DNA from: a virus
Taxonomy: Duplodnaviria; Caudoviricetes
DNA: 31,308 bases
Strand: one strand, 5' to 3'
IMG/VR virus record: IMGVR_UViG_3300013125_000852
Coordinates: 1-31,308 of that record
Position 1 is the stretch's first letter. The number at the start of each line of letters is the position of its first letter. The notes under the pieces are model-generated. The model was given only the letters and a program-made list of their open reading frames with translations, was not told the DNA's origin and made no database searches. Shown here in pieces: positions 1,733-30,525 of the stretch. The translations under genes and the position numbers were made by a program.

Positions 1733-2380
1733 TCAAGCATAGTTGCGAATCAGCAGCTCATTGACACGCTTGCGTGCTTCAACTTTACGCGCCAGTGAGT
1801 ACCGCGTCGTGACCTGCTCGATCTCCGCCCATTTGTAGAGTTTCCTGATTTCAGCATGATCATTATAGCTCAGAAGGAACTTCCCTTTCAAGTGTTTCAG
1901 CGTCGCTGCAAGACGTTCATGCGCCCTCTCTATAATGTCCTTAATGTAGTCGCTCAGAATCGGTGCTCTATCGCTCAGTCGATAGCCGAAGCTCGGCTTG
2001 ACCGTTCTGTCTCCGAAAGCCTGTCTGAGCAGCCAGAAGAACCTGGCAGCCCGCTGCACCTCAGTAAGTATGACAGGCTGGAACGCCTGTCCCACAAGCC
2101 CTTGCTTGTCTCTCCTGAAATCTTCCTGGCTCGCCAGCCTGAACCGCAGCTTTTCGAGCAGTTCAAGCGGCTTTTCTCGCACACATCGGAAGAAGTTCGT
2201 CAGATCGCCATGCCTGTCATTCAGGACCTCTGCCTTGGACACGCTCGCCTCTTTACCGAACAGCACCCATGCAGCGCCGCAGAAGACCTCGATATACGTC
2301 GTATGCTCAGGAAACAGCTTCAGGATTTTCGGCCTCAGCAGCCTCTTTCCGCCGACCCATCCGATTGGACTCTGTAACAT
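1733..2380 (-). CDS. dam: Dam/D12-class DNA adenine methylase with an in-frame internal deletion removing the DPPY motif (probably inactive)
   Basis: SPIGWVGGKR, YIEVFCGAAWV, EVLND, LTEVQRAARF and KGKFLLSYND...ELLIRNY motifs. No DPPY; only 215 aa. SD AAGGAGG. Confidence 0.85.
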   Translation of the reverse strand: MLQSPIGWVGGKRLLRPKILKLFPEHTTYIEVFCGAAWVLFGKEASVSKAEVLNDRHGDLTNFFRCVREKPLELLEKLRFRLASQEDFRRDKQGLVGQAFQPVILTEVQRAARFFWLLRQAFGDRTVKPSFGYRLSDRAPILSDYIKDIIERAHERLAATLKHLKGKFLLSYNDHAEIRKLYKWAEIEQVTTRYSLARKVEARKRVNELLIRNYA

Positions 2381-2535
2381 GATTCGCCTCCTTGCGTCGA
2401 TGACGCTCGAAGGCGTTCAGGATTGATCTCAAGCCGATTTATAGTCTTGCATCGGCCGCACTTACATTCAGCCGAAATGCTTATCGAAGCTTCAAACAGC
2501 TTCTTACCGCAAGTCTTGCATCTAACTTCGCCCAT
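2335..2535 (-). CDS. com: Mu Com-family zinc-finger translational regulator (66 aa)
   Basis: MGEVRCKTCGKKLF...ECKCGRCKTIN matches the Com CxxC...CxxC pattern. It overlaps the methylase start as Mu com overlaps mom. SD AAGGA before ATG 2535. Confidence 0.82.
   Translation of the reverse strand: MGEVRCKTCGKKLFEASISISAECKCGRCKTINRLEINPERLRASSTQGGESCYRVQSDGSAERGC
2385..2415 (-). promoter_or_regulatory. mRNA hairpin sequestering the methylase Shine-Dalgarno sequence
   Basis: mRNA CGCCUUC-GA-GCGUC-AUC-GACGC-AA-GGAGGCG gives 7-bp and 5-bp stems covering GGAGG, ending 4 nt before the AUG. Confidence 0.65.
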
Positions 2536-2805
2536 CACAATGTCCTTGTGATACAATGTCCTCATGTCGCGCGCTCTCAGAGCCGCTTTACGGTCAGTGC
2601 GCGATATTTGAGGAGTCTGCATCTTGCAGGGCCGAAGTGTTTTTTCGGTCGGTTTTGGCTGCATCAACAGCCTAAACTGCTCCTCAATCAATCACCGGCT
2701 ACGAAGACAATCCGCAGATTCCGGGCGCATGCCATGCGCCCCTACCAATCGGCTGTTTCATCTGCGTCATCTGCGGTTGGTTCCCTTCTCTCCCATGCTA
2801 CATCC

Positions 2806-2994
2806 TCAGTCGCTTCCACCCTGTTTCTCGATCTCCAGCGCCACGGCCTGGCGATACAGCTCCAGCTCTGCGATCAGCCGTGACGAGCCTGACAACCCCA
2901 GCATCGAGACTTGCTGCTCCATAGCTGCAATATTCACGAGCATACTGAGTAGATTGGATGGCACTTTTTCATAGTCTATAATCGGCCGCGGCAT
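2806..2994 (-). CDS. Small helical hypothetical protein (62 aa) downstream of the fibre gene; possible fibre chaperone
   Basis: MPRPIIDYEK... with SD AAGGGGA before ATG 2994. The longer ORF-track version overlaps the fibre gene. Confidence 0.55.
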   Translation of the reverse strand: MPRPIIDYEKVPSNLLSMLVNIAAMEQQVSMLGLSGSSRLIAELELYRQAVALEIEKQGGSD

Positions 2995-3008
2995 TGTGTT
3001 TCCCCTTT

Positions 3009-5996
3009 CTATCCCGACGCGACACGCTGCACGTATATGCTGGCGTTGATGTATTGCATATATGCATTGCACGTTGTGACGGCTGGGTTCCCGGTTGCCG
3101 TGCAGTGCGGCGTGAATTGGTATGAAAATGTCCCATAGATATTCCCTTGGCTCAATGAGGCAGGCGCAACGGCCAGATCTCGCCATGCACTCAACGTCTG
3201 CTGATTCTGGCCGACATAGTAATAGGCGATGCAATATCCAGGCGCGCCGATATCTGAAAGGCATGTCCCGACTATGTTTCCGTTGTAGATCAGCTCGCCG
3301 TGCAGCCTGTATACGCTCCCGCCCACCGATGTGAACACCAAGCTCGTGCCTCTCCCATAGATCAATCCAGGAATGACCAGTTCCGTGTAGTCCGCTGTTA
3401 CCTGAGCGGTCCACGTTCGGGTTGGCTCATTGTATCGGCTACAGACATTATGGTCATAGGCCATGGAATTCAAGGATGTGAAGCATAGCGAGCCTACAAG
3501 GACCTTGTCCGGCGAAAGCAGGTTCAGCTTCGAATAGTTAGTGTCTGGCGCCTGTGTTGACAAAAAAAATGTGTCGTATCCAATATAGACATAATAGAAC
3601 GTCCCCACAGACCCGGAAACCTGCAACGTGATCCCCTCTTGCGGAATCAGCCGCATCGAGAGATCCGGAAATACGATCGTGCATGGATCGGTAAGCGGCA
3701 CGAGCTTGATGGTGTTGCTGTTCACCCGTTCCAGTCGCACTAGGATGCCCGCGGTTTTTTGCTGCTCATAAAGCATGTTCGCGGAAAGCGATGTCTGAAT
3801 CTTCGCGCTGCTCCAGGTATCGTTGAATGTCGTCGCGGAATCGTCAATCTTGAGCTGCGAGAGCGGCGCAATTTCTTTGATGAAGTTTCCCGAAAAGTGG
3901 CTCTGCGCTGTGGGCCGGATGCGAGCCAGCCATCTCGCATTGTTTCCCGGCCAGTTGCCCGACAGATATCCATTCACGGGCGCCGTGAGGCAGCAAAAGA
4001 GCGCGCCTGCGAAATCACCCCAGAATGACCTATTGTTCGCCAGATACAGATAGAGGTCTTGGTCGGGATAATCTTCGATCGCATTTAGCGGCTGTAGAGG
4101 CGCATCAGGGCTATTTTCGTCATATTCCTGGACAATATCCGTAGTCGCGCAAACGTGGACCCTGGCGTCGTCCTGATCATACGTCTGCACGGTCAAACCG
4201 GCCACATTGACCAGACCGTCCGTGCCCGTCCGCTTGGCAACCTTGAACGAGAAATCATCCACATTGACAAATCGGATGTCAGCCAACCCTGAATAATAAC
4301 TTGGGCTGATCACGGGTTGCCTGATTGCTGTCACGTCCGCGCTGGGTCGGAACATGCCCGCGCTGTCGGTCATGATTTGCCCGATATGCCGCGTCACATA
4401 GCCCGGCCACTGTTCATCGAGCCTGCCATGATCCGGCGCCTTCGGGCTCAGGAACGGCTTTAGGCGCATATCCAGCGAAGCGTCGTAATTGCCTTCCGCG
4501 GCGATGTCCTTCGAGGTCCACGGCCGATTCGTCGCGGGATTTACCGCATTGAAATTGAACTCATCCACATCGCCGGAAATGTAGATATAATGCTGCATAT
4601 TTGGCGAAAGCGCGCCCGTCTCGCGTTGGATCTTGCCCGGCGCCTCGTCGTTCCATGAGACCCACGGATCGTTGGTCGTGATGTCATACTCCACGCCCAG
4701 ATAGTGCAGGTTACCCGCGACGTAGATCTGCCCATAAGCCCCGTCGAGCAGCGCGAACCGCAAAGTGTCGCCGTCCACGAACTGGACCTGGTAATCGCTG
4801 AAATCCCTCAATGTCTCCGGGAAATTCGTGGTCCTGGATATCAAGGAAATGTCCACTTCACGGAGAAAGAACGGACCGCCTTGCTCTGTGGGCGTGTCAT
4901 CAGTCTCGACCTTGCCCACAAGCCTCGCATTGCGGCCAGGGCCGATTGTTGACAGGTAGCCATCAGTCTCGGGAGTGGTGGAGAGAAAGAGCCTGCCTCT
5001 AAAATCCCATGAGCCCCCCTCACCCTGACCCTCTCCCGGAGGGAGAGGGAAATGGACGCTGAAGGCGGCATCCCTGGAATTGGCCACGTAGATCCAATAT
5101 TCCGTTTCAGGCTGCAAAATCACCGGCAAGATGCCGGCGCTACCAATTTCAAGGGTCGGCTGTTTGTTGGTCACCGCTGCGCTGCGCTCCGCTTTCACGA
5201 ATTCGCCATTGACCCAGATCAGCCCCGAACCGCCCGGAATGGCTTCGAGGCTGATTTCGGTCGGGCTGATCCAGACCACACGCGCGTCCGGACTGACCAT
5301 CTGCAAAAAACCAGGCGGCAAATGCCGTTCAGGCTCATCATCCTCCAGCCTGGAATGCTTCTCGCGTAGCCATTGGTAGCCATTCCAGAACAGCAGGACA
5401 TTTGTTTCCACGACCGCGTGCAGCTCGCCCATCGAGCGGCCTGGATTGGGCAGGTCTGATTTGTTGTCCACGTTCCAATAGCGATGCAGCGGTTTGAATT
5501 CCTCCACCGAGGAATCCCAATAATAGAGCCTCCAGTAATATTGATTCGCGGTCGCGTCATAGAACCGGACGTTCCAAATCTCACCAAAGGGCCTCGGGCC
5601 AGTGGGCAGTTCCGAATAGGTGAGCGCAGCCCCGGCAATTCCAATCCCGATCCACTGCGTCCCGTCCCACCAGTAATCATGCTCCCATCTGCGGAACCGG
5701 CGAACATGCCCGTAGACATTCCCTTCGGGGCTCACGCGATACAATTCATCCCCGTAATTGCCGTCGCAAAAATAGGGCATGGAGGCCGTGGCCGCAGTGT
5801 TTGACGGCGGCCAATCCCCCCCCTCACCCTGGCCCTCTCCCGCGAGGGGCGAGGGAATAGCGGGCAGATCGTCAGGCGAATCCAGCGGCGGCTGCTGAGG
5901 CTGCACATAGAGCATGAGGTTGAACCGCTGCGCAAGCTGCTCCAGACCGTCGCCGTCAAGCGAAATATCGACCGCAGGCCAGAATTTAGACGACAT
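3009..5996 (-). CDS. Large tail fibre / receptor-binding-like structural protein with four internal domain repeats (995 aa)
   Basis: Lies after the tail-collar gene. Repeated beta-rich unit (YxYxxN...FLS..P..GYL...PG.NAR) and a KIDDSATTFNDTWSSAKI fibre linker. Start at MSSKF (5996); the upstream extension is translated repeat. Confidence 0.7.
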   Translation of the reverse strand: MSSKFWPAVDISLDGDGLEQLAQRFNLMLYVQPQQPPLDSPDDLPAIPSPLAGEGQGEGGDWPPSNTAATASMPYFCDGNYGDELYRVSPEGNVYGHVRRFRRWEHDYWWDGTQWIGIGIAGAALTYSELPTGPRPFGEIWNVRFYDATANQYYWRLYYWDSSVEEFKPLHRYWNVDNKSDLPNPGRSMGELHAVVETNVLLFWNGYQWLREKHSRLEDDEPERHLPPGFLQMVSPDARVVWISPTEISLEAIPGGSGLIWVNGEFVKAERSAAVTNKQPTLEIGSAGILPVILQPETEYWIYVANSRDAAFSVHFPLPPGEGQGEGGSWDFRGRLFLSTTPETDGYLSTIGPGRNARLVGKVETDDTPTEQGGPFFLREVDISLISRTTNFPETLRDFSDYQVQFVDGDTLRFALLDGAYGQIYVAGNLHYLGVEYDITTNDPWVSWNDEAPGKIQRETGALSPNMQHYIYISGDVDEFNFNAVNPATNRPWTSKDIAAEGNYDASLDMRLKPFLSPKAPDHGRLDEQWPGYVTRHIGQIMTDSAGMFRPSADVTAIRQPVISPSYYSGLADIRFVNVDDFSFKVAKRTGTDGLVNVAGLTVQTYDQDDARVHVCATTDIVQEYDENSPDAPLQPLNAIEDYPDQDLYLYLANNRSFWGDFAGALFCCLTAPVNGYLSGNWPGNNARWLARIRPTAQSHFSGNFIKEIAPLSQLKIDDSATTFNDTWSSAKIQTSLSANMLYEQQKTAGILVRLERVNSNTIKLVPLTDPCTIVFPDLSMRLIPQEGITLQVSGSVGTFYYVYIGYDTFFLSTQAPDTNYSKLNLLSPDKVLVGSLCFTSLNSMAYDHNVCSRYNEPTRTWTAQVTADYTELVIPGLIYGRGTSLVFTSVGGSVYRLHGELIYNGNIVGTCLSDIGAPGYCIAYYYVGQNQQTLSAWRDLAVAPASLSQGNIYGTFSYQFTPHCTATGNPAVTTCNAYMQYINASIYVQRVASG

Positions 5997-6010
5997 GCGG
6001 AAAATACCTT

Positions 6011-6208
6011 CCCTCACCCCGCCCTCTCCCAAAGGGCGAGGGTGAAAGATGTAACCCCTCTCCCAAGGGGAGAGGGTGAAAGATGTAATCCCTCTCTCCC
6101 CAGGGAGAGAGAACCGAGTTTGCCCTCTCCCTCTGGGAGAGGGTTGGGTGAGGGTCTCCCTGCTCTTCCTCTTTCCCCTCGCCCCCCGGGAGAGGGATGG
6201 GGTGAGGG
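6011..6208. repeat. Cluster of five family-B elements (CCCTCACCC-n3-CCCTCTCCC-n-GGGAGAGGG)
   Basis: Five CCCTC/GAGGG-type hairpins in both orientations, with a duplicated GGGTGAAAGATGTAA spacer. Confidence 0.85.
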
Positions 6209-6211
6209 CAG

Positions 6212-7453
6212 CTACGTCTTGATAATCTTCAGCACAACCGCCGCAGGATGATAGTTATTATGCGCCTCCCCGCCGCCCTGCGCGGAGATTGTATGCGAGT
6301 GAGTGCCCGTCACATTCGGAGCGTTGCTGCCCGCAGACGGCGTATAAGCGCCGGTCGCTGAAGGGGTGCTTGTGCCGGTGCTGCCGCCGTGATTGTGGCT
6401 CGGCATCTGATCCACCGTCAGAGTGACCGTCTCAGCGCCTCCGGTATTTCCCACTGCATTGCCAAGTTGAGCCGTGCCGGTCCCGCCTGAACCGACCGCG
6501 CTCCGGCGGCGAAGGTCCGGCAGATTGAACGTTGTTGAGCCGTCGCCTATACCCCATGTCGTCCCTATGGCTGTGAACAGAGCTGCATAGGTCTCACGGC
6601 TCACTGCGGAACCATCGCACGCGAGCCAGCCGTCGGGTGCTGAATCGCCGCCGTAATCCATTATCATGCCCGCGGGCAGGGTTGACCCTCCCGGCACATC
6701 CACCGCCTTCAACACCGTTCCATCGATCTTGCAGTATTTCCCATCCTCAAGATTGCCGATGGTTCTCGCTCCATCGGTCCCAGTCAACGCCACGACGGTA
6801 GGAGAGGCCGCATTGCCGCCTAATTGCCCCGCGAGTTGAACCCTGCCTTTGACCTCGGCGGTAGCGTCCGGCACAGGAGCTACCCCCACCACTGTGGTCC
6901 CGGAGCGTCCCAACAATTCACCGTCGTCTATGGCGCCCATTGATAGCGATTGCCCACCAGATTCCTTCACCCCGACCACAAGAGGCTCGTCCGCTGTGCC
7001 GCTAAAATTGCCCGCCAACTTGAGCTTACCTTTGACGTCGGCGGTGGCATCCGGCGTCGCGGTCGCGGGATACGGCCATTCCGTCCAGTTGCCCAGGATA
7101 CTGGGATCGTCGCCAGTCAGGACATAGGCCTTGGTGACATCGGACCTCAACGCCATGTCCCGCTTCTGAGCCGTCAGGGCCAGCATTTCAACCTCAGAAG
7201 CCACGCTGAAGGTATCCCCGAGCGCTGCGGGCGGGAGTTTATTCATAGGGACCTGAACGTTCTGGTCCAATAGCAACGGCCCGCCGGCTTGGTCCGCGGA
7301 ACCAACAAAATCCTCGAGCGCATCGGCTCGACCGCCCAGCGCGTCGGTCTCCTCAGCGATCGCGGCAAGATTATCATTGACCTTGTCCCACGCGGCAGGA
7401 TTCAGGTCCGGGTTCTGAGGGTCAAGACTGATTGGATCGGGAGTATATGGCAT
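6212..7453 (-). CDS. Tail fibre protein with phage tail-collar domain
   Basis: PAGMIMDYGG..APDGWLACDGSAVSRETYAALFTAIGTTWG.GDGSTTFNLPDLR and GGAETVTLTVDQMPSHNH. Duplicated PDATAxVKGxxxLAG module. Confidence 0.92.
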   Translation of the reverse strand: MPYTPDPISLDPQNPDLNPAAWDKVNDNLAAIAEETDALGGRADALEDFVGSADQAGGPLLLDQNVQVPMNKLPPAALGDTFSVASEVEMLALTAQKRDMALRSDVTKAYVLTGDDPSILGNWTEWPYPATATPDATADVKGKLKLAGNFSGTADEPLVVGVKESGGQSLSMGAIDDGELLGRSGTTVVGVAPVPDATAEVKGRVQLAGQLGGNAASPTVVALTGTDGARTIGNLEDGKYCKIDGTVLKAVDVPGGSTLPAGMIMDYGGDSAPDGWLACDGSAVSRETYAALFTAIGTTWGIGDGSTTFNLPDLRRRSAVGSGGTGTAQLGNAVGNTGGAETVTLTVDQMPSHNHGGSTGTSTPSATGAYTPSAGSNAPNVTGTHSHTISAQGGGEAHNNYHPAAVVLKIIKT

Positions 7454-7489
7454 GATTCTGTATCCCTGTGGGACAGGCTTTCCAGCCTG

Positions 7490-7705
7490 TCATTTCGCTT
7501 TGCCTTTTCTTTTCAGCGGCTCGGCAGGTTGCGCTGCCTCTATTGCCGCCAGACGCTCATGGAGCGCGGCCAGCATCGTCTTCAGTTCCTGATTCTCGGC
7601 TGCAATGGCCTCAACCTTGCGGCTCTGCGGGCTCGGCGCGGGGACTCGCCAGCCCCTTTTTTTGCCGGCCTTCATGCCTTGCGGCGGATTGTCATATGGA
7701 TTCAT
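7490..7705 (-). CDS. Small coiled-coil hypothetical phage protein (71 aa)
   Basis: MNPYDNPP...AAENQELKTMLAALHERLAAIEA; co-oriented with the operon. Confidence 0.6.
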   Translation of the reverse strand: MNPYDNPPQGMKAGKKRGWRVPAPSPQSRKVEAIAAENQELKTMLAALHERLAAIEAAQPAEPLKRKGKAK

Positions 7706-7710
7706 TTTTG

Positions 7711-7955
7711 CCCTCACCCTAACCCTCTCCCGGAGGGAGAGGGGCGGATGTAGGGGAAGTTCGCGAACCGCCCCTACCTTGTGGTGGAGGGGTGCCGGAT
7801 CATCTTCGTGACCTCACGAAGATGATCCGGCATGCTTTCCCAGCGCCCCTCGGGTTTGCTGCGCTGAATCACCGGCAAGATGCCGGCGCTACAAATACTC
7901 AAGAGTTTTTGGGAGGGGGTCCGGGGGAAGACCTTTTTGCAAAAAGGGCTCCCCC
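7711..7955. repeat. Composite palindrome cassette (B, C-like, G, A, F)
   Basis: B 7711-7743; GTAGGGG...CCCCTAC 7750-7777; perfect 19-bp stem 7793-7832; A 7872-7892; F 7923-7955. Confidence 0.85.
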
Positions 7956-7983
7956 GCTTTTCTTCCCATGGCTCGCCTCGCCA

Positions 7984-10900
7984 TTACACTCGGCTGCACA
8001 CGAAGCCCACGTCGCGGACCTTCGGAGTGCGGGCCTGGTTGGTCGTCTCCAGATAGGTGAAGGGGCGCATCTGGCTAAATTCAGCCACATTCATGGTCCC
8101 TCCATCTGTGTATTCTCCATTGCCCACGCTGTCCGCCCCGGTGTCTGGATCGACCAGCGTGACCGTATCCGCTGTAACATCCACGAGCCTCCACGTTCCG
8201 TTTGCATTGGTATTGCCGCCCACGTCCGCGATCACGGCCACTTCGTTCTCCTGATGGCCGTGGTTTTCGCTGGTCAGCACAATTGGCGTCGTGTTGGATG
8301 CGCCCGTGATTGTCGCCTCCTCCGGGGTCTGAAACTCGTGGATATAGAAATTCTCTTCAGCTCCGATGGGTATATATCCCGGCGTGGGGAGCATATCCAC
8401 CAGGTGCTCGCCATCGTCTACCGAATATTTCGGAGTAATGGACCGCACGCCATTGCCGTTTGTCCCGTCCGTATCGAGCTTTACGTAGCACGCGACTTTG
8501 TTCGGATATGCGAGCGGATCTGTGAATAGCTGATCGTTCCATACCGCGTATCCAGACGTTTCGTGGAGCAGGAACAGGATGCCCGCGATCTGTTCGAGGA
8601 TCTGGTACGAACCGCCCAGACTCGTCACGTCGATGCGCAATTGGACCTCAGTTACGATCTGCTCCAGGACCACGTCTATACCCGGCCGGAAGGGAATCCA
8701 GTCGCTGGACCCTGCAAGTGCATAGCTCCAAATCACGGTTGTTCCAGGGCCGATAAATTCGGTGACAGCTATGGCTATGCGGCTCGCGCTCACTCCCGAG
8801 ATCGCATGGAACACGATCTGGCAGTTGTTTTCAAAATTCGACTTGTAGAGCTTGTATTTCAGGTCCCGCCGCGTCCATGGGTCCCACGTTCGGCCGTTCG
8901 GGCTGTGGAAGGCCACACCGTCAGCCATCGGCGGGCCGATAATCTCGCCGGTAGCCGCGTCGATTGCGCCCAGTTCCGCGGCCCAGACCTCGAAATCGGT
9001 GCTATTGCCGCCGGGCATGGGCACAAAGCAGAATTCATTTCCCGGCTGATACCCGAGCACATGCTCGAATGTGAAAACCGTCTCAACACTGCCATCAGCC
9101 GAAACCGAAATGTCAGCAGGCTCCAGCGTGCATGAGGCCAGGACTTGCTGGCTGGGATAGCCGTTCACTACAGTCCTGATCTGGATCGTGAAGGGCTGAG
9201 TGGCCGATTTGGCAGCGAAAAACAGACCCACGGCTGAGAGGTAAGTCGCTCCCTCTGCTGGGATCAAAAAAGTCTCAGCGATCGGATCGAGCTGAGCATG
9301 TTCGCCGGTATCCACCGCCTGCGTCTGAGTCACCGTTTCAGTGCGTGTGGTGAATGTCGGAATGCCGATGCTGGTGCTCTGCGTTGTCCGAACCATTCCC
9401 GCGCCGAGGAAGGAGGCCAGCGCTCTGGAATGCGTCGGCTGGCTGTAGTGGAAAACGTTCACCGGGGCCTCGCCATTCGTCACCCCTTCGGGCATCACGA
9501 ACTTGCCTGTCAGCCGCCCGGAATTGTCCGTGGCGACCGTGGTCTTCCCCTCATAGGTATGCGTCCCGGCCGCGCCTTTAGGGTTCTCCGCTCCTGAGTC
9601 GTAGACGAAATCCGCGACCTTTCCTGCGATTGCAATCACATGGTCCGAATTCGGGACCAGGCCGTCAACTCGCACATGGACCTCAAAATCGCTGCCGTCC
9701 GGGTTTTTCGTGCGGAGCATCGGCGCGAGGGACAGATCGACCACCCTATCGCCTACGTCAACCGTGGTGGACCCCGGGATTAGCGTCGTTTGCACGCCCG
9801 AGCGTTGCTGCAGGGCCATGATGTCGCCGACCATCATGCCGATGTTCTGGCCTGGATAAGCTTCCCTCCAATTATCAACCCGTGTTTGCCCCGTATTGAA
9901 CCAATCCCCCCAAAGGACGGAGGATATCTGCGCGCCGAGGTTATCTATTGCGCTGCTCAAATTGTCGTCAAAATCGCTATTCAGGTCCGGGGCCTGGTTT
10001 TCGTCCATAAAAACTTGCACGGACGGGCTGAGCGTCATGGTGCCGTAGTAGTCCTCGATCACATAGTCCGGAGCGCAGTTGATCCTTATCGAGGCTGCGA
10101 GCTGCTGATCGAACACCTCGGGCTGGTAATCGAGCAAAATGCTGTTCCCCACCCTCCGCACATTGGTCGAACTAGCCAAGTCCACGCTTAGGAGCGCGCC
10201 CTCCCGCGTGGCAGGCAGCATCAGCGTCCGCGTCTGGCGGTCCAGGGCCGCGGTATGCCTGATCCCATTCTTATTGAATGCCATGTCCATACGCCCGAAC
10301 CCGGTGAGCGCATCAGTGAACAGGCCCTTGAAATCAACAGCCACGGGCAGGGCCGCAACCTCCTTTTCCAGGTTGTTCACGACGCTCCAATACTCGACGC
10401 GTTCCATCCTGGCCTTGAGTTCCTGGAGGTCTTCCTGCGTGAGCCGCCGGCGCTTGAGCTGGACAACACTGACGTCCGACACGTTGTACGTATACGGAGG
10501 GACCTGGACGATAGCGATCGAGAGCAAGCCCGTCTGATCGGGCGGGATCGGCGGATTTTTGGCCGCCGCGCCTGTTATCAGGCTGAAATTGCCCTGGTCT
10601 GACAGGACCAATTTGTCTATGCGGCCGAGGTAATATTCATAATCGAAATTTGGGTCCTCCTCAGGCGTCGGCCACACACCTGCCACGGTGCGGAAATCCA
10701 GACAGTCCCGCAGATTGAGCGTGGAGAATGACTCGATTTCGGCATAGAGATCATAGGAATCCGCAACCACCAAGTCGCCCTCAACCTCGTGATACCAACA
10801 TTCCAGGCTCACATAGTATGTCGCGGCAGTGATGGGCTGGCCGGTTGCTCCGCCGCCCTGTTCGCCCGCGGCCGACCAATCTATCTTGGATGTCCCGTGA

Positions 10901-12879
10901 GCCAGGCCCGTGGAATTCTTCACCAGGCTATACAGATTATATTCGCTCTGGCTCTGCCCCGGAGAATCATTCACACGCAGGATACGCACCGCGTCAATAA
11001 CCGCTCCGCTCAACCCTCCAACCGCCTCGCCGTTGATCACGCGGGTTATGGCAGTTGCGCCCGTAAAAACCAGATCGTCCTGGCCGTCCTCCGCGCCCTT
11101 CACTACCTGCGCATCAACGACCCGGATCAGGGACCGCGAACCTTTCACCGCGAGCCGGTTGTACGCGTAGGCCACATAATACGTCGCGCCGCTGTTAGGT
11201 TCCGCGCCTCCCATGCCCGCGAAGGAGATAGTGTTGCCATCCCGCACAAAATCCACGCCATTCTGGTAATCCCATTTATGATCGTGCGCATCCGCGGCCG
11301 TATTCGATGCGCCGATAATCGTGAGCACATTCGTGTGGCCCAGTTCGTCAATATGCGTCGCTCCGTTGTGTGTCACAGCTTCAACAATATCGACCCGATA
11401 GCTGATGTCCGTGACGTTCTTCACAAACATGTCGTTGATACGATAGAGCCGCGTGCCCACCGGCTCGTAGGTCCCTGTTGAAATGCCCAGCTCGGTGTAA
11501 CAGTCGCTCGCAACCGCCTGCACGGCGAGGCTCTTCCCGTCCGCGGCCTTTATCTGGAGATGCCCGCCAGCCGCGGTGCAGATTACAAGCGTCCCACTCG
11601 TCGGGTATGCATTTATCGAGCTGGCGATCTGCGAACCGACCTGAGCAGCCGTCTGTCCGTTCCCTGTTAACGCCACGGTGTGACTATTACCCGACCCGAT
11701 CGTGAGCTTGATATTCAGCCCGTCAACGTCGAAATTCTCCTCTTCGCTTGTGATGACGCTCCCGCCCGGGATCGAAAATGGATCGCTCGCGCTTTCATTC
11801 ACGAACAGCGTTTCCCTCGCCCTGGCCAAATCCATAGGCTGCGCAGCCTTGGTCCGCACCTCAAAACCGTTCGGATAAGCCTCCCCGCACTTCGCCAGGA
11901 GCCGCAGCTTCGCAGCATCCGTCGGATGCGCCGCGACTTCGAGGGGGAACGGGTCCACCACGAACGAGCCGCTCACGGCAAATGTCCGCCGTGCAAGCGT
12001 CCTGTCGAGCATCGTCCGTTCAGGCGCCAGGACCTCAAGTTTCGGCTGCCCGTCGATGAACTCCCTGATTTTGATCTGATTCGGATCGTCCACCGTCCAA
12101 TTCACGGAAAACACCAGTTTGTCCGTGCCCGGCTGGCAATACTCCCGGTCCACCCCCTCGTCCAGGTTCCTCATATACGTGTCGTCAGTATGGGTCAGGG
12201 CCTCGGGCGTGACCACAATGCCGACAACCTCCGTGCCCGAACCCGTGAGCGTGACCTGGCCGCTCGGAATGGGCAGATAAATGCCCTCAAGATAAATCTT
12301 GCCCTCGGTGAATTCCCAGACATTCTCACTGACCAGCCGCTCCTTGAGCCCGTAAATCTGGTCCCCGTCCTTATGGAGCGTGTCTCCCAGGCCCCGGATC
12401 ATGCGATGAAAAACGCTCTGCAAATCCATCAATTCGTGGCGCTGGAAGTCCCGTCCCAGGTTCCCCAATAGCATCCACCAGTTCGGGCGCCCTGAGGTAT
12501 CGCTCCCGGGCGGCTGGATGTTCTGCACGGCCTGGCCCGTGTCGTCTATCACCGCGAGGGATGCAGCGACTTCACCCAACAGTTTTTGAACCCCCGCATC
12601 CTTCTTGAAGAACCGGACATACCCCGCGGCGGCAGGCACATTCGTGGCCCTCAGCCGCACGAAATTCACGCCGCTCAGAGTATTCGGCGCATTGGATAGA
12701 CTCACCGCCTCGCCCGGAGTTGTCTCTCCCACCAGGCTGCGGAATGTCGCGCAATACTCACACGTCTGCGCGCCCGGGACACCGAGCACTTCCGGCGCGG
12801 CAAGGATCGGCTCATCCAGGTTGTCGAAAGCGCGAACCTGGTAATCGTGGAATTTCTTCAGGACTATACTGTCGCCCAT
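7984..12879 (-). CDS. DUF4815-like giant baseplate/virion structural protein (1631 aa)
   Basis: GRDFQRHELMDLQS, LARRTFAVSGSFVVDPF, YYLGRIDKLVL, RMERVEYWSVVNNLE, DPIAETF..GLFFAAK..IQIRTVVNGYPS and DLKYKLYK motifs. C-terminal ITGASNTTPIVLTSENHG domain. SD AGGAGGAG. Confidence 0.8.
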   Translation of the reverse strand: MGDSIVLKKFHDYQVRAFDNLDEPILAAPEVLGVPGAQTCEYCATFRSLVGETTPGEAVSLSNAPNTLSGVNFVRLRATNVPAAAGYVRFFKKDAGVQKLLGEVAASLAVIDDTGQAVQNIQPPGSDTSGRPNWWMLLGNLGRDFQRHELMDLQSVFHRMIRGLGDTLHKDGDQIYGLKERLVSENVWEFTEGKIYLEGIYLPIPSGQVTLTGSGTEVVGIVVTPEALTHTDDTYMRNLDEGVDREYCQPGTDKLVFSVNWTVDDPNQIKIREFIDGQPKLEVLAPERTMLDRTLARRTFAVSGSFVVDPFPLEVAAHPTDAAKLRLLAKCGEAYPNGFEVRTKAAQPMDLARARETLFVNESASDPFSIPGGSVITSEEENFDVDGLNIKLTIGSGNSHTVALTGNGQTAAQVGSQIASSINAYPTSGTLVICTAAGGHLQIKAADGKSLAVQAVASDCYTELGISTGTYEPVGTRLYRINDMFVKNVTDISYRVDIVEAVTHNGATHIDELGHTNVLTIIGASNTAADAHDHKWDYQNGVDFVRDGNTISFAGMGGAEPNSGATYYVAYAYNRLAVKGSRSLIRVVDAQVVKGAEDGQDDLVFTGATAITRVINGEAVGGLSGAVIDAVRILRVNDSPGQSQSEYNLYSLVKNSTGLAHGTSKIDWSAAGEQGGGATGQPITAATYYVSLECWYHEVEGDLVVADSYDLYAEIESFSTLNLRDCLDFRTVAGVWPTPEEDPNFDYEYYLGRIDKLVLSDQGNFSLITGAAAKNPPIPPDQTGLLSIAIVQVPPYTYNVSDVSVVQLKRRRLTQEDLQELKARMERVEYWSVVNNLEKEVAALPVAVDFKGLFTDALTGFGRMDMAFNKNGIRHTAALDRQTRTLMLPATREGALLSVDLASSTNVRRVGNSILLDYQPEVFDQQLAASIRINCAPDYVIEDYYGTMTLSPSVQVFMDENQAPDLNSDFDDNLSSAIDNLGAQISSVLWGDWFNTGQTRVDNWREAYPGQNIGMMVGDIMALQQRSGVQTTLIPGSTTVDVGDRVVDLSLAPMLRTKNPDGSDFEVHVRVDGLVPNSDHVIAIAGKVADFVYDSGAENPKGAAGTHTYEGKTTVATDNSGRLTGKFVMPEGVTNGEAPVNVFHYSQPTHSRALASFLGAGMVRTTQSTSIGIPTFTTRTETVTQTQAVDTGEHAQLDPIAETFLIPAEGATYLSAVGLFFAAKSATQPFTIQIRTVVNGYPSQQVLASCTLEPADISVSADGSVETVFTFEHVLGYQPGNEFCFVPMPGGNSTDFEVWAAELGAIDAATGEIIGPPMADGVAFHSPNGRTWDPWTRRDLKYKLYKSNFENNCQIVFHAISGVSASRIAIAVTEFIGPGTTVIWSYALAGSSDWIPFRPGIDVVLEQIVTEVQLRIDVTSLGGSYQILEQIAGILFLLHETSGYAVWNDQLFTDPLAYPNKVACYVKLDTDGTNGNGVRSITPKYSVDDGEHLVDMLPTPGYIPIGAEENFYIHEFQTPEEATITGASNTTPIVLTSENHGHQENEVAVIADVGGNTNANGTWRLVDVTADTVTLVDPDTGADSVGNGEYTDGGTMNVAEFSQMRPFTYLETTNQARTPKVRDVGFVCSRV

Positions 12880-12899
12880 GGGGCTCCTCCTAGAATGCT

Positions 12900-13026
12900 A
12901 TCCGCAGATTACTGTACGGTGCGACCGGCGGGACGCCGGCACGCTACAATTTGTTTCGTAGCGCCGGCATCTTGCCGGTGATTCGGCCCCGAAAGAGTCT
13001 CTGCCTAATCTGCGCAATCTGTGGAT
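12900..13026. repeat. Family-D inverted flanks enclosing two inverted family-A elements
   Basis: ATCCGCAGATT...[12925-12947][12958-12978]...AATCTGCGCAATCTGTGGAT. Confidence 0.8.
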
Positions 13027-13038
13027 GGCATTCTCTCA

Positions 13039-13551: not shown

Positions 13552-13560
13552 TCAAAGCTC

Positions 13561-14433: not shown

Positions 14434-14447
14434 CGAATACAATCCTT

Positions 14448-14690
14448 ATCCGCAGATTCACGCAGATTTCACAGATTGCTGTACGGCGCGACCGGCGGTC
14501 GCCTCGGGGCGCACGCCATGCGCCCCTACAAATGCCTTTCGTTGCCTTTCTGCGAGCGGTCCTCAGACCATTTTCGTGGAGTCACGAAAATGATCTGAGG
14601 ATGCTTTCCCAGGGCCGTCAGGCCCCGCAATAGAGTTTTAGGGAGGGGGTTTGGGGGAAGACCCTTTTGCAAAAGGGGCGCCCCCGATTC
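14448..14690. repeat. Composite palindrome cassette (D, C, G, F)
   Basis: CGCAGATT-type tandem 14448-14477; C 14481-14529; 19-bp stem with one mismatch 14560-14601; F 14652-14685. Confidence 0.85.
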
Positions 14691-16170: not shown

Positions 16171-16694
16171 CAGAGGGCGCTGGGAAAGCATGCGGGGACC
16201 CGCTTTTTGCAAAAAGCCGGTTCCCGCACCCTCCGGCAAAAACTCCCATATAATGTTCGGTCTTCATGGTCTTCGTTGCCTTTACGCGAGGTAGGGGCGA
16301 GGCATGCCTTGCCCAGGGCGACCGCTGGTCGCCCCTACCTTCATTGCGTTTCTTGTCCGTAGCACGATCCGCATACGATTTTCCCGATTTTCCAGAATAG
16401 TGCCACGATTCATCCTGGAGGCTACCCGGATCCGGCTGGCGCTGGATACTCGAGGAGGTGATTCGTAGCACGATTGCATTTTCTTCGTTGCCTTTGTTGC
16501 CGGGGTGCGGAAGTCATTTTCGGTTTGAAAATGACTTCCGCATGCTTGGTCAGCTCCCCCAGGGCCGAATCACCGGCGAGACGCCGGCGCTACAAAGCCA
16601 TAGGAGTTCTTGAAAGGGGCGCCGGGGGAAAGCTTCTTGCAAGAAGTTTCCCCCGGCATTCCACAATCTGCGTAATCGGCGCAATCTGCGGTTA
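16171..16694. repeat. Repeat-rich spacer: inverted F cassette, C, unique core, then H-A-F-D cassette
   Basis: F reversed ~16193-16227; C 16291-16338; H 16506-16542; A 16573-16593; F 16621-16657; D 16665-16694. Confidence 0.8.
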
Positions 16695-17717: not shown

Positions 17718-17718
17718 A

Positions 17719-18819
17719 TCAAACCAACACTGCCCCGCCGTTGTCGCCGCCTCCGGTATCCCCACTGCCTCCTGAATCTCCACTGCCCGATCCCCCACCG
17801 GCAGGATCGGGCGATTCCGGGGCCGTAGCCCCGGTATCTTGCCCGTCATCACCGTTGAATTCCGAGAAGGCATTTTTCACGCCTCTTGCCAGTCCCTCGA
17901 TGCAGGTCTCCACATCGGCTCGTTTGCTCGCCTTGAGGAGCATGTGCGTGCTGGTCACCCAGCCTTTTTCTCCGGCAAGGACCAACTGCACCGGACCGGA
18001 GGAGATGAACGTGTTTTTCTTCTCCGCATCGAACAGTATTGACGGGCCGATCTTCCCATTCTCCGTGGCCGCGAATATGGCCAGGATGCCTTTGCCATCG
18101 CCTGCGTAATGCCAGATGCCCCCGCCGTTCGCATCCATCAGGCCCATGTAGTAATGGCCGTCCTTGGTGGCGTCCTTGACGCTTTCGGATGTGCCCGTCG
18201 CGACCATTTTGGTCCCTCGGCGCTTCCCTTTCCGCGGCTTCGATTCCTCTCCCTCGCTCTCCTGCTCATCCTCATCCTTGCCCGGCCCGGACATGAACAG
18301 GCCCGCTCCCAGGCTATCAATGAGCGCGAGCTTTTCCCTCTGCCCCCGATCGTCGAACAAAAGGGTATGGCCCGCCTCAGACTTCAGGATGCGCAGCCGG
18401 GTAGCGTCCCGCGGATTGTTCTTGCCCGCGGTTTTCACTTCCAGCGGCGTGAGCTGCTTGTTCCGGTCTTTCCCCGTCTTCTGCCCCTGTTGATATGGCG
18501 GCCCGGGTATGGCGAAGAGGGCCTGCGGATGGCCGGACAGGAATCCCAGATAAACAGTCTGTTGCGGCTGCAGCGGCAGCCACGCGCCCTGATCGCCCTT
18601 GGATTCGTCGCCGCCGCCGATGGGCGCGCCAATGACCTGGACCCATCCTGTCCAGTTCTTTTTGCCCTTGCCGAGCAAGTCCGGGCATTCGCACCTGACG
18701 CGGCCAACGCCCCACGGGTCCTTGACATCCTTGACCGTAGCGTCGTGGAAGGACAGGAACTGATTCATAAGAAACGGCGTCGGGACATATGGCGGTTCCC
18801 AATCGCGAGCGAAGAACAT
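17719..18819 (-). CDS. Baseplate central spike, gp5/VgrG/GpV OB-fold protein
   Basis: ATVKDVKDPWGVGRVRCECP, W.P....V.LGFLSGHP and LKSEAGHTLLFDD motifs. Confidence 0.85.
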   Translation of the reverse strand: MFFARDWEPPYVPTPFLMNQFLSFHDATVKDVKDPWGVGRVRCECPDLLGKGKKNWTGWVQVIGAPIGGGDESKGDQGAWLPLQPQQTVYLGFLSGHPQALFAIPGPPYQQGQKTGKDRNKQLTPLEVKTAGKNNPRDATRLRILKSEAGHTLLFDDRGQREKLALIDSLGAGLFMSGPGKDEDEQESEGEESKPRKGKRRGTKMVATGTSESVKDATKDGHYYMGLMDANGGGIWHYAGDGKGILAIFAATENGKIGPSILFDAEKKNTFISSGPVQLVLAGEKGWVTSTHMLLKASKRADVETCIEGLARGVKNAFSEFNGDDGQDTGATAPESPDPAGGGSGSGDSGGSGDTGGGDNGGAVLV

Positions 18820-18820
18820 G

Positions 18821-22550: not shown

Positions 22551-22757
22551 TTATTTGCTTCCGAACATTTTTTCGAGGAGCTCGCCGAGCCGTTTATGAA
22601 CGTCCCGGCGTTCCCTCACCGGCCAGCGTTTCACCTCGCTGCGTTGCTGGTGATGCCATTGGCATATGTCGAATACGGCCCGGCTGGGGCTATATATCTG
22701 ATACAGTAGCCGCCAGTTTAATCGGCCGAAGGCCGCTGCGAAATTGCCGAACTTCAC
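22551..22757 (-). CDS. Small tail assembly chaperone partner (lambda T-like position)
   Basis: GTGA overlap with the upstream stop; HHQQRSEVKRWPVRERR resembles the small pre-TMP ORF of myoviruses. Confidence 0.6.
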   Translation of the reverse strand: MKFGNFAAAFGRLNWRLLYQIYSPSRAVFDICQWHHQQRSEVKRWPVRERRDVHKRLGELLEKMFGSK

Positions 22758-23443
22758 ACCATGAGGCCCGGCAGCAAGAAAGAAGGGTCCGCAAAAAGGT
22801 CCACCACCTGTGCTTTCCCCTGTTTGTTCCGGAACCGAACCCGCGTATCATAGCCGCACTGGTTCTTGCGCATGTCGGCCCGGAGCGCCTTGTGATCGAA
22901 TCCGGGCCATTGCTTGACCGCCTCCAATTTGATATCTGTCGAGCCATTCACGCTCCGGATCGCGCGGAACGACATCCGCGTCGGCTGGAAGCCGGGCAGC
23001 TCCAATTCTTCCAGGTCCTGCGCCGCGGTCTTGTACCCGTAAACAATCTGATGACCTGTCCGGGGCAACGTGAATTTGAACGTCGGGTCCGGCCCCGCGG
23101 TCATCGCGAGGAAATCGAGCTCCTTCAAATCCACTGCATATCCGGACTCCTGGGGATCGTCATCATTCACCAATATGAGGGTGTCCCCGTAGGTCACACG
23201 ATAGATTTCAATCCCGAGGCATTTGTAATCCGGGGTCCGCAACGCCAGGACGTCATCCCGCGTAACAGGGGCCTTGTCGCCGAGCTTGGCCGTGCAGTAG
23301 GCCCAGTAATCGGGCAACGCCGCGGCCAAACCCTTATTGGATTCAGTTATCAATTCCTCGGCAAAGCTGTCCGCCTCGCGTATTACCGCCTCCAGGCCGG
23401 ACACCGGCAGCGTGACGGTTTTGGTCAAATACTGATATTCCAT
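22754..23443 (-). CDS. Tail assembly chaperone / baseplate hub assembly protein (T4 gp26-like)
   Basis: Duplicated TLPxSG/TG motif (VTLPVSG, FTLPRTG); lies between tube and TMP. Confidence 0.65.
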   Translation of the reverse strand: MEYQYLTKTVTLPVSGLEAVIREADSFAEELITESNKGLAAALPDYWAYCTAKLGDKAPVTRDDVLALRTPDYKCLGIEIYRVTYGDTLILVNDDDPQESGYAVDLKELDFLAMTAGPDPTFKFTLPRTGHQIVYGYKTAAQDLEELELPGFQPTRMSFRAIRSVNGSTDIKLEAVKQWPGFDHKALRADMRKNQCGYDTRVRFRNKQGKAQVVDLFADPSFLLPGLMV

Positions 23444-23446
23444 ATT

Positions 23447-23651
23447 CCCTCACCCCAACCCTCTCCCAGCGGGAGAGGGGAAGCTACCGGCGGGCCTGCC
23501 CCGGACCACGATCCGGGGACGCCGGCGCTGCGAAGGCATCCGCAGATTGCGCAGATTGCTGTACGGCGCGACCGGCGGTCGCCCTGGGGCGCACGCCATG
23601 CGCCCCTACCGTAGCGCCGGCATCTTGCCGGTGATTCTGTTCAATCTGCGG
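23447..23651. repeat. Nested palindrome cluster (B, A with 24-nt insert, D[C,A]D)
   Basis: B 23447-23479; A 23487-23531 split by 23495-23518; D 23538-23557; C 23561-23609; A 23611-23631; D 23643-23651. Confidence 0.85.
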
Positions 23652-23656
23652 CTGCC

Positions 23657-23878
23657 CTATTCTTCCCGGATCGCTTCCAGGGCCTGCGGCCCGAGATCGT
23701 TGAATATGAACTTCGCGGCCTCAGCCTGCGTGGTCCGGGCCAGCATTTCCTTCACCGGTCTCTCCGGATGATCGGAGAGCCGCGCTTCCACCCGACCGTC
23801 GTCCAGGACCTCCACCGCGGCATGTTCCAGCAGCGGCGAAAGCTCATCCAATTTGGTGCCCTTTTTCGGCCTTCCCAT
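23657..23878 (-). CDS. Small hypothetical phage protein (73 aa)
   Basis: MGRPKKGTK..., SD AGGGAG, co-oriented. Confidence 0.6.
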   Translation of the reverse strand: MGRPKKGTKLDELSPLLEHAAVEVLDDGRVEARLSDHPERPVKEMLARTTQAEAAKFIFNDLGPQALEAIREE

Positions 23879-23892
23879 GATTCTTCTCCCTG

Positions 23893-24044
23893 CCGGCAAG
23901 ATGCCGGCGCTGCGGAATACAAGCCGTTATCCGCAGATTTCACAGATTGCGCCGGTGTTTCGGGCCGTGTAGGGGCGCATGGCATGCGCCCTCTGGAGGG
24001 CGACCGCCGGCCGCCCCTACAGCAGTCTGCGTGAATCGGCGGTT
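23893..24044. repeat. Palindrome cluster A + D[C]D
   Basis: A 23893-23913; D 23929-23948; C 23969-24020; D-right to 24044. Confidence 0.8.
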
Positions 24045-26899: not shown

Positions 26900-27259
26900 T
26901 TATTCACCTCCTGCATATTCCCGGCGTTCAATCCAGCCGAGCTTTTCCCAGGCAAAAATCTGTTTCGTGAGCAGCTTTTTCAAAATCGGCCCGCTGACAT
27001 GAATGTCCCGGCCTGCGCATCGCGGCCCCAGATTGATATGAGTCCCATCGCGCAGCGGGCACGCAAGCGGCTGTTTGGATTTGTTCACCAGGATGCAATA
27101 GTCGGTTCGTAGCGCCGGCGCCTTGCCGGTATCTGCGGCCGGCTTTTCCCCCTCACCCTGGCTCTCTCCCGCCAGGGGAGAGGGGGGGCTTTTCTCTTCC
27201 ATAGCGCCGGCATCTTGCCGGTACTCTTCTTCTTCTTTGGCCTTATTTCTTGTGGCCAT
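26900..27259 (-). CDS. Small pre-sheath phage protein carrying three in-frame palindromic repeats
   Basis: SD AAGGAGG before ATG 27259; C-terminal LVNKSKQPL...INLGPR domain; repeats at 27109, ~27149 and 27201. Confidence 0.7.
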   Translation of the reverse strand: MATRNKAKEEEEYRQDAGAMEEKSPPSPLAGESQGEGEKPAADTGKAPALRTDYCILVNKSKQPLACPLRDGTHINLGPRCAGRDIHVSGPILKKLLTKQIFAWEKLGWIERREYAGGE

Positions 27260-27472: not shown

Positions 27473-28078
27473 TTACACTCCTATCTGCAAATCGAACTCT
27501 CTTATGCCGAGCGCCTGGAATGCAGCCTGGCGTTCAACCCACACGTTCGAGACTCGATACCGGACCGCAGTCCGGTAGAACGGCTTTTCAAGCTCATCCA
27601 GGTCCTCCGGGCTGCCTGTGCTGATCATCAGCGGAGCTCCGAATTTGTTGCCGTCGATCTGCAACCGAAACGGCACCGGAAATGCTTCGAGAAGCATCAG
27701 GAACAGCGCGGTGTCCTGATCGTCCGCCACGCTGTAGCAGTCCACCTGGTAGAAGAGCTCCAGGGGGATCGGCCACCATTTCCATTCCCAGGACGCCGGG
27801 CCAATGAACTCCCCGCCGCCGAATTCAGTCTCGGGAATGGTCACCGTGACCTGCTCGTCAGACGGCGTGAAATACTCGAGATGGTTCCGGCAGGCATCCA
27901 AATCGATTCGAGCTTTCATGTATCGAGACAGACTGATGCACGGCGGAATCATCTCGCCTTTCTCACGATCCGGGCCAAGGCCGTGAATGGGCATCGGCTG
28001 AACTACCGGCGGGACGCCGGCGCTACATTTGATTCGGCCGAGCCGGTCCAGAATATATGCATCAACCAGTTTGATCAT
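27473..28078 (-). CDS. Tail terminator / sheath cap (Pvc16/gp15-like)
   Basis: PCIS and PIPLELFYQVDCYS motifs; lies just upstream of the sheath region. Confidence 0.65.
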   Translation of the reverse strand: MIKLVDAYILDRLGRIKCSAGVPPVVQPMPIHGLGPDREKGEMIPPCISLSRYMKARIDLDACRNHLEYFTPSDEQVTVTIPETEFGGGEFIGPASWEWKWWPIPLELFYQVDCYSVADDQDTALFLMLLEAFPVPFRLQIDGNKFGAPLMISTGSPEDLDELEKPFYRTAVRYRVSNVWVERQAAFQALGIREFDLQIGV

Positions 28079-29426: not shown

Positions 29427-29433
29427 ATCAATG

Positions 29434-29841
29434 TCAATCTATCCGCACGATGCGCGGCTTCGGATATCCAGGCGGCAACGGCCGGTCCAGATCTTCCGGC
29501 GCGGCCTCTTTTGCGGCCAGCTTCACCTGGTTCTTGAGCTGCTCCTGCAGCGCTTTCAGAAACTCGATCGCAGCCTCATATTCCGCTTCGGATGCTCCGC
29601 CCTTCGCTCGTTTGAGCCGTTTGGCCTGGCTGAAGGTCAACAGGAGGCGGGGAATGAGCGCCTGCGTCGCGAGAACCGAGATATAGACCTTCTGCTGTTC
29701 GGTGATCGTGGCTGCTCCGTATTGCTGGAGCTCCATCTGAGCTTCCACCTGCCGGGTGATGATCGCATCCGTCAGCGTGGGATCGAGCGCCAGCACCGCG
29801 TCGAGCTGGTCTTTCACGAGTTGCACTGCATCAACAGCCAT
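29434..29841 (-). CDS. Head-tail adaptor (neck) protein
   Basis: Helical 135-aa protein with KRAKGGASEAEY beta-hairpin-like motif; synteny after the capsid gene. Confidence 0.6.
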   Translation of the reverse strand: MAVDAVQLVKDQLDAVLALDPTLTDAIITRQVEAQMELQQYGAATITEQQKVYISVLATQALIPRLLLTFSQAKRLKRAKGGASEAEYEAAIEFLKALQEQLKNQVKLAAKEAAPEDLDRPLPPGYPKPRIVRID

Positions 29842-29853
29842 CGAAATCCTCTA

Positions 29854-29981
29854 CCGGCAAGATGCCAGCGCTACGAATACAATCCCGATCCGCAGATTTC
29901 ACAGATTTGCTGTAGGGGCGCATGGCGTGCGCCCCAGGGCGACCACCGGTCGCCCCTACATAATCGGCGTAATCTGCGGTT
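29854..29981. repeat. A + D[C]D nested element
   Basis: A 29854-29874; D 29888-29908; C 29912-29959; D 29961-29981. Confidence 0.85.
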
Positions 29982-30525
29982 ATTTCTTCCTCTTTTCATG
30001 TTCCCGCTGCCATTCCGCGACAGCGATCTGCACCGCGATATTGTGCTCGCTGGTGCGGCTCTTGACATTGAGGCCCAGCCTCTTGGCCCTGGCGCGGAGC
30101 TGCGCCACGGTATTCTCCTGTTTGAGCGTCTCGACCCGGCGCTCGATCACAATGTCTCGGGCCGCGGCCAATGCTTCGGGCGTGGTGGGCAGAGATGCCG
30201 CAGCGCCGGCGTCTTGCCGGTCTTCTTGCATCTCTGCCTCATGCGCCACGGCGCCCGGGTCCGCAGACTCCGCTGGCGCTGCCGGACTTACGTCCGGGTC
30301 CTTCTCGCTCCCTCTCCCCTCGCGGGAGAGGGACGGGGTGAGGGACGCATCCGCGGGCGGATCGGCGTAGATCAGGCTGCGAGTGTCCAGCCGCTGAGCC
30401 GTCAGGCTCCCGGCCGGCACGACTTCCGGAAGCTGCTTTATCTCTCCCGGTCGAATGTGGAACCCCAGTTCCCGGTCATAATGCTGGCCGTGCTCCGACG
30501 CCAGCTTTACCCATTTCCGTTCCAT
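29980..30525 (-). CDS. Post-capsid accessory protein with low-complexity linker and Rho-N/HeH-like C-terminus; two in-frame repeats
   Basis: TVAQLRARAKRLGLNVK motif; repeats at 30200-30220 and 30310-30344. Confidence 0.65.
   Translation of the reverse strand: MERKWVKLASEHGQHYDRELGFHIRPGEIKQLPEVVPAGSLTAQRLDTRSLIYADPPADASLTPSLSREGRGSEKDPDVSPAAPAESADPGAVAHEAEMQEDRQDAGAAASLPTTPEALAAARDIVIERRVETLKQENTVAQLRARAKRLGLNVKSRTSEHNIAVQIAVAEWQREHEKRKK

Follow-up and report, generated by a model that had tools for sequence, protein, structure and literature searches.

The window analysed here, the whole 31,308-nucleotide stretch of a caudoviral record (IMGVR_UViG_3300013125_000852), carries the late (tail and head) half of a Mu-like contractile-tailed phage (1518..31308, - strand), in which short palindromic repeats of several families lie between genes and, at fewer sites, in frame inside them. 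The phage amounts to ~61.7 kb, and its remainder is found in two further records: G001, identical to the window over 18.5 kb (1518-20000), and G079, which overlaps G001 across 13,430 bases with 4 mismatches. This overlap shows G079 to be the same phage and not a second repeat-rich one. The merged genome encodes MuA (a DDE transposase), a MuB-like AAA ATPase, Gam, GemA, Gp27, a repressor, terminase and a contractile tail, with Com in the window, a gene content that places it among the Mu-like phages.

The phage end (1518..1570, + strand) contains a ~20-bp motif in tandem, likely representing transposase-binding sites, and the host DNA beyond 1518 differs between the window and G001, so that two host flanks are known for the left end, as expected of a phage with Mu-like variable flanks. 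The shared left end starts with TA; the termini of Mu read TG...CA and are bordered by a 5-bp target duplication. On the host side of the window lies cysM (166..1104, + strand), 95% identical to its counterpart in the Desulfomonilales genome G057, which is the best of 64 CysM matches among 70 genomes (the order of an uncultured Desulfomonile bin). Because of this identity we infer a Desulfomonilales host and use G057 as its proxy. A host open reading frame (ORF) at 1170-1544 (- strand), with a weak Metal_resist match, runs with its 5' end into the phage end at 1518 and was likely interrupted by the phage.

A motif scan across the ~61.7 kb detects 168 repeat units in eight families (C 46, D 30, A 28, B 27, E 18, F 10, G 6 and H 3), which make up ~6% of the phage genome, versus 1-3 units in each of 10 shuffles. 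In the window, family A has 13 matches at no more than 2 mismatches and family B has 7 exact ones, with 0 in 100 shuffles for each. Families A and C start with GTAG and family E with GTGG, the tag of GTAG-type repetitive extragenic palindromes (REPs); B, D, F, G and H do not. Units are arranged in mosaics such as D-C-C-D and A-C-C, and as inverted dimers (C-C, E-E). In the window, a cluster of four B units fills the gap that separates the collar gene from the fibre gene (6011..6208), an intergenic F-C-C-G-G-A-F-D mosaic, the largest of many, lies at 16193..16690, a nested A-D-C-C-D, likewise intergenic, at 29854..29978, and the pair B-D-C-C-A-D and A-D-C-C at 23447..24020. This last pair encloses a small ORF (23657-23878, - strand), which is located between the genes for the tube and the chaperone and has a weak homologue in L028.

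A preliminary description of the window had listed ten palindromic copies in frame inside phage genes, read in different frames and orientations. All ten are present and in frame, several frames and both orientations are indeed used, and an eleventh copy, overlooked there, is an in-frame family A variant in the C-terminal extension of the spike gene (17825..17845, + strand). Family A, open in five of its six frames, is read as SAGILPV/SAGVPPV, RQDAGA or GKAPALR, and family B as PSPLAGEG, PLPPGEG or SLTPSLSREG.

The 995-aa tail-fibre-like protein (3009..5996, - strand), which has no Pfam or PHROG match and whose role is assigned from its position, contains a B unit at 5017..5049 (+ strand), an A unit of the GTAG REP type at 5123..5143 (- strand) and a second B unit at 5821..5855 (+ strand). 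In alignment, the last of these coincides with the point at which the two closest fibre homologues begin (MAWPP), and three further homologues start downstream of it; it would be coding only if a window-specific 59-aa N-terminal extension is translated, which is uncertain. Relatives have an ORF of ~90-110 aa at this place, to which the extension is similar by eye; the idea that the B unit fused such a small upstream gene to the fibre is unsupported, a 6-sequence profile having found no match. The 119-aa pre-sheath protein (26900..27259, - strand) holds an in-frame A-B-A mosaic (units at 27201, 27150 and 27109; 27109..27221, + strand) in its N-terminal linker, which varies in length among homologues; look-alike models align with this protein at about residues 40-119 only. 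The tail terminator (27473..28078, - strand) carries an A unit at 28006..28026 (- strand), corresponding to residues 18-25. Its structure model (predicted local distance difference test, pLDDT, 86) shows a predicted T4 gp15-like fold with Foldseek matches to 9mkb (E 2e-7) and 4huh, and this predicted gp15/gpU fold, together with a place between the neck and sheath genes, assigns the protein to the terminators; a sequence search found no solved structure for it.

The preliminary description had proposed structure models as a means of locating the repeats in surface loops. In the terminator, the model places the repeat at the tip of a predicted beta-hairpin; the fibre model (pLDDT 50.6, both repeat sites in stretches below 50) is uninformative. 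As a separate observation, the terminator genes of three relatives (L020, L021 and L029) contain an insert of ~100 aa, and repeated segments of a similar kind are seen in the sheath, decoration and DUF4815 proteins.

The 181-aa post-capsid protein (29980..30525, - strand) has, in alignment, a hypervariable middle linker, which holds an A unit (30200..30220, + strand) and a B unit (30310..30344, - strand) in frame. The Dam-like D12 methylase (1733..2380, - strand) carries a GTGG-tagged family E unit (2075..2095, - strand), read as VGQAFQPV, in a loop. A 49-aa deletion between two HERL-coding stretches has removed the DPPY motif, which is present in 125 of 128 full-length homologues, and the same deletion appears in contigs of all four lake-water runs that we examined; the enzyme is likely inactive. 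Since the methylase is without its catalytic motif, its copy is uninformative about selection. The arrangement at this end of the phage (1733-2565, - strand), in which a Com-like zinc-ribbon gene precedes the Dam-like methylase, recalls com-mom in Mu.

Protein alignments, in which the length of each repeat-bearing segment is compared with that of its homologues, qualify the earlier statement that the repeats add peptides. Residues are gained in the terminator (15 aa versus 9 in 11/14 homologues, +6) and in MuA (32 versus 11 in 19/22, +21); the methylase loop with its E unit measures 26 aa, where the most frequent length among 128 homologues is 20, and the lysin segment 40 aa against 7 and 20. 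The two inner fibre copies depart from this pattern and look like overwrites of native codons: the A unit at 5123 occupies a segment of 14 aa where 6/6 homologues have 16 (-2), and the B unit at 5017 one of 23 aa where the three closest have 21 (+2) and three others 10-13. The pre-sheath N-terminal linker is 50 aa long against 3-47 in 8 homologues, and homologue linkers also vary in the post-capsid protein (40-82 aa) and in portal-MuF (34-70 aa). No aligned homologue has the same peptide without the DNA palindrome, a pattern that the preliminary description had named as refuting its reading. The same linkers have been hit in relatives: several pre-sheath, post-capsid and portal-MuF homologues have, in folded DNA, their own in-frame GTAG hairpins or B-like or F-like repeats there, and at the peptide level the MuA site holds a 9-aa insert in one homologue, while the C-terminal linker of several MuA homologues contains F-type peptides. 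Elsewhere in the phage, the portal-MuF linker holds an in-frame B-C-A (L004, 6098-6192), and MuA an A-C-C (L145, 12591-12664) and three E units (L145, 10972-11151).

Across the whole phage, 63/166 units fall within 24 ORFs, MuA included (65 matches, less two dropped as chance: an H at window position 15741 and a C in an N6-N4 methylase). In the phage part of the window, 11/69 units lie in ORFs and 58 outside, where ~91% of the non-repeat sequence is coding (binomial p ~1e-50); this corresponds to 0.42 units/kb of coding versus 15.5/kb of non-coding sequence, a ~37-fold depletion. Genes for the sheath, tube, tape measure, DUF4815 protein, gp25, hub, neck, capsid, protease, large terminase and MuB are free of repeats, and a comparison of 37 intergenic gaps with relatives revealed two extra conserved coding stretches and no gene broken by a repeat. 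These observations point to purifying selection that keeps most core virion genes repeat-free and, with the two host flanks, bear out the earlier suggestion of selection for a functional phage. The emphasis on virion proteins, by contrast, did not hold: the other half of the phage accounts for 47 in-ORF units, MuA alone contributing 6, and in-ORF density is 2.5/kb in the early and lysis half versus 0.46/kb in the late half (cut at merged position 39184, which counts the lysin and its neighbour as early), on which we reject virion-specific targeting. Among A copies, the exact consensus is matched by 12/17 in ORFs and 9/11 elsewhere; this similar degree of match inside and outside ORFs suggests that colonisation is recent or still under way. 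Intergenic units often end directly at ribosome-binding sites, and the B arm supplies a GAGG motif just before three start codons (window 23447-23479, the chaperone gene, and 7711-7743; L145 1762-1796).

The repeats are elements of the host lineage. Family A is present in 28/70 Desulfomonilales genomes (frequently as +/- pairs; 0 to 150 copies per genome over all 70) and family B in 2/5 genomes. Several families also flank enzyme genes there. Family E lies on both sides of a Y1_Tnp gene of the REP-associated tyrosine transposase (RAYT) type in L081, A-like or C-like hairpin variants flank Y1_Tnp genes at L078-L080 and L082 (A-like ones at L079, L080 and L082), and the proxy host has 10 Y1_Tnp matches; in related bacteria, family B brackets a DUF559 gene and family H a GxxExxY gene. 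A phage-encoded mobiliser was rejected, G001 and G079 containing no match to the Y1-transposase, DUF559 or GxxExxY families (PF01797, PF04480, PF13366). Also rejected was the notion that repeat clusters in G057 are prophages related to the window phage, with no phage protein match in 17 regions. A similar upstream sequence and a small acidic ORF accompany both the DUF559 gene (G073, L154 ~2190-2300) and the GxxExxY gene (G057, L155 ~1000-1260), hinting at a landing site that the two genes may share.

The reading that we favour, and hold to be reasonably probable, is that hairpins of host families colonised a working Mu-like phage by means of host enzymes acting in trans, and that in-frame copies survive only where they are tolerated. 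Mu multiplies through a cycle of replicative transposition. In a phage of this kind, such a cycle would expose single-stranded DNA as a substrate and provide many genome copies into which host enzymes could write repeats, each event adding residues or overwriting a few native codons. Many in-frame events would be viable because five of the six family A frames are open; frame-breaking events would be purged, neutral ones would drift to fixation, and purifying selection would leave copies in loops. TnpA-REP, according to Corneloup 2021 (PMC8266576), cuts single-stranded REPs at C|T flanking the hairpin on either side, and also carries out strand transfer, a chemistry that could give both additions and replacements. 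In-ORF copies lie mostly in length-variable loops, linkers and termini, and are likely tolerated passengers and not a built-in means of particle diversification.

The load on the phage is high compared with related chromosomes. Family A reaches 16 copies in 43 kb of G001 (370/Mb) versus 35 in 5.7 Mb of G057 (6/Mb), and its density in the phage is 14-60 times that of the 70 Desulfomonilales genomes searched; all families together reach 27 units per 10 kb (168 in 61.7 kb) versus 3 per 10 kb in G057 (103 in 340 kb, from 17 regions mostly picked for holding repeats). Several points weigh against our reading, the first of which concerns these figures: the baseline is G057, a 95% CysM relative and not the true host, the search patterns were built on phage sequence, and repeats drop out of metagenome bins; the enrichment may accordingly be overstated. 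Most related phages are poor in these families, with 0-25 units per record, and the load therefore likely depends on the host. None of the 10 G057 transposase loci examined is flanked by exact A copies, and DUF559 and GxxExxY are candidate mobilisers by their flanking repeats only. At the DNA level we find no empty-site allele, the homologues being 30-57% identical, and an insertion followed by a compensatory deletion in the fibre would therefore look identical to a replacement. Homologues give no support for many ORFs of the early region, and copies near an N-terminus may precede the true start. Finally, the methylase is probably dead, as judged from its deleted motif, and Gam appears split in G079 into two overlapping ORFs (L145 6678-7243, - strand) with no repeat at the break, either by a real frameshift or by an assembly error.

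A broader proposition is that hairpins tied to RAYT, DUF559 and GxxExxY accumulate preferentially in transposable phages and are carried horizontally by them, being written by a shared route, based on single-stranded DNA, that can overwrite codons; we regard this as tentative and somewhat doubtful. The planned comparison in IMG/VR counts among the points against our favoured reading. Using the 50 longest of 69 B-bearing viral contigs of at least 12 kb and 49 length-matched controls drawn with an arbitrary 15-mer, MuA-C was found in 7/50 versus 2/49 (p=0.16), Portal_Mu in 13/50 versus 9/49 (p=0.47), and the union of Mu markers at the family cut-off in 15/50 versus 8/49 (p=0.15). A stricter union (14/50 versus 3/49, p=0.006) was formed post hoc and, unlike the planned tests, reached significance; it serves as a lead only.

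Among the alternatives to colonisation through host enzymes, the one that survives best, though we consider it unlikely, holds that the phage is not enriched at all and mirrors an exceptionally repeat-rich true host, gaining copies while integrated. It draws on the 0 to 150 copies of family A among 70 relatives, on densities that lack the true host as reference, and on host genes that also hold in-frame units (14/105 units in long ORFs of the repeat-picked G057 regions, some chance F matches among them, and a C-C-C-B cluster inside a 941-aa host ORF). Against it, the richest of the 70 genomes (150 copies of family A in 5.5 Mb, 27/Mb) still falls 14-fold below the phage, and even the regions of G057 picked for repeats hold only 103 units in 340 kb versus 168 in 61.7 kb.

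We give a low probability to a second alternative, a decaying prophage that collects repeats under relaxed selection, its frame-preserving copies being simply those still recognisable as genes. The DPPY deletion, the apparent split of Gam and the odd repeat-rich early ORFs without homologues would fit such decay, whereas all structural genes are intact and syntenic, no gene broken by a repeat was found, and coding sequence in the window is strongly depleted of units. The two host flanks argue in the same direction, as do contigs of 4/4 lake-water runs, which break at the phage end, beginning at 1517/1518 with no differences in the phage pieces listed. Read depth is higher over the phage than over the flank in runs X1 and X2, and not clearly so in X3 and X4; the four runs may belong to one campaign. 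The phage is likely still active.

Similarly improbable, in our estimation, is that the repeats are adaptive, whether by diversifying surface loops, by tuning translation, or by marking phage DNA as self against host repeat-linked nucleases. The independent hits to the same linkers in related phages, the units that end at ribosome-binding sites, the GAGG motifs ahead of three starts and the two fibre copies that appear to overwrite native residues would all suit this explanation. Set against them are the invariance of the listed phage pieces in four runs, the recurrence of the same few peptides in unrelated proteins, including non-virion ones and the probably dead methylase, and the lack of any diversifying enzyme found in the phage; for loop diversification, as the preliminary description had raised it, we find nothing in favour beyond the recurrent use of the same linkers. 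The last alternative, that metagenome repeats were stitched into phage genes during assembly, has in its favour the many unrelated contigs that align at repeats, but is highly improbable given single contigs that run gap-free and unchanged through several repeats (1518-6149 in X2; 1517-6155 in X3), a second record identical over 18.5 kb, a third that differs at 4/13,430 bases, and homologues from other samples with the same habit.

The closest known system is that of the GTAG REPs. In Di Nocera 2013 (PMC3733652), intragenic GTAG REPs are described as likely neutral in linkers, and N-terminal copies as possibly extragenic. With the repeats of that paper and of PMC8266576, the likeness extends to GC-rich hairpins of 20-35 bp with a GTAG or GTGG tag (here A, C and E), inverted dimers, Y1 transposase genes flanked in related genomes by E and by A-like or C-like variants, and a mostly intergenic distribution with some in-frame copies presumed neutral in loops and linkers. 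Here, unlike there, the repeats are crowded on a transposable phage at 14-60 times the related-chromosome density, occur in mosaics alongside families that have no GTAG tag and are linked to DUF559 and GxxExxY genes, and include some apparent codon overwrites. The word 'prophage' is absent from the main text of PMC3733652, and 'phage' and five repeat peptides are absent from its four text supplement files.

REP doublets forming hairpins (REPINs) are, according to Bertels and Rainey (10.1101/2021.07.10.451892), almost exclusively extragenic, chromosomal and vertically inherited. With the REPIN-RAYT system as portrayed there, our repeats share the character of non-autonomous palindromic units that rely on a transposase in trans, as well as inverted dimers (C-C, E-E); they differ in that 63/166 units lie in ORFs, on a horizontally mobile Mu-like phage with two host flanks. 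Rickettsia palindromic elements (RPEs), which the preliminary description had offered as precedent, are a looser parallel than intragenic GTAG REPs (PMC3733652). According to PMC10969869, RPEs are ~150 bp long, encode a conserved peptide, and lie in frame in unrelated protein genes at sites predicted to be fold-compatible; the in-frame palindromic inserts in unrelated genes are shared, whereas the units here measure 21-35 bp, use several frames and both orientations, comprise several families and peptides, and reside in a phage. The phage itself resembles Mu-like phages in MuA, the MuB-like AAA protein, Gam, GemA, Gp27, Com, repressor, end repeats and variable host flanks, and differs from Mu in its ~62 kb, its DUF4815-type baseplate, a left end of TA as opposed to TG, and its ~6% of repeat motif.

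Our literature search, which covered few subscription journals, showed among the entries listed no paper on REP-saturated Mu-like phages and none on repeats tied to DUF559 or GxxExxY. Each ingredient has precedent; what is new is that several enzyme-linked families load a transposable, likely active phage to an extreme degree, with apparent overwrites and recurrent hits to the same loops. How REPs spread is described as unresolved in PMC8266576, and this phage, with its independently hit relatives, could serve as a natural high-turnover reporter of repeat mobility, for which Y1 transposase, DUF559 and GxxExxY are candidate enzymes. The copies also map insertion-tolerant loops in MuA, portal-MuF, the terminator and the lysin, and warn annotators that such peptides are repeat-derived. 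Were transposable phages to prove preferred sinks, the vertical-only view of REP biology would be broken, DUF559 and GxxExxY would be new repeat-mobilising enzymes, and the phages would offer a continuing source of new protein loops.

Three further features of the phage and its relatives deserve mention. A conserved second frame (window 22560-22790, - strand) overlaps the end of the tail-chaperone gene and has homologues in L071, L007 and L019, which suggests a programmed frameshift of the lambda G/GT type. Two ankyrin-type or secreted-looking genes (L145 18377-19658, + strand) lie in the interval that separates the repressor from the right end of the phage. The relative G004 (L036-L039), a complete genome of 70 kb with direct terminal repeats, has the same tail and head module and almost no units of these families.

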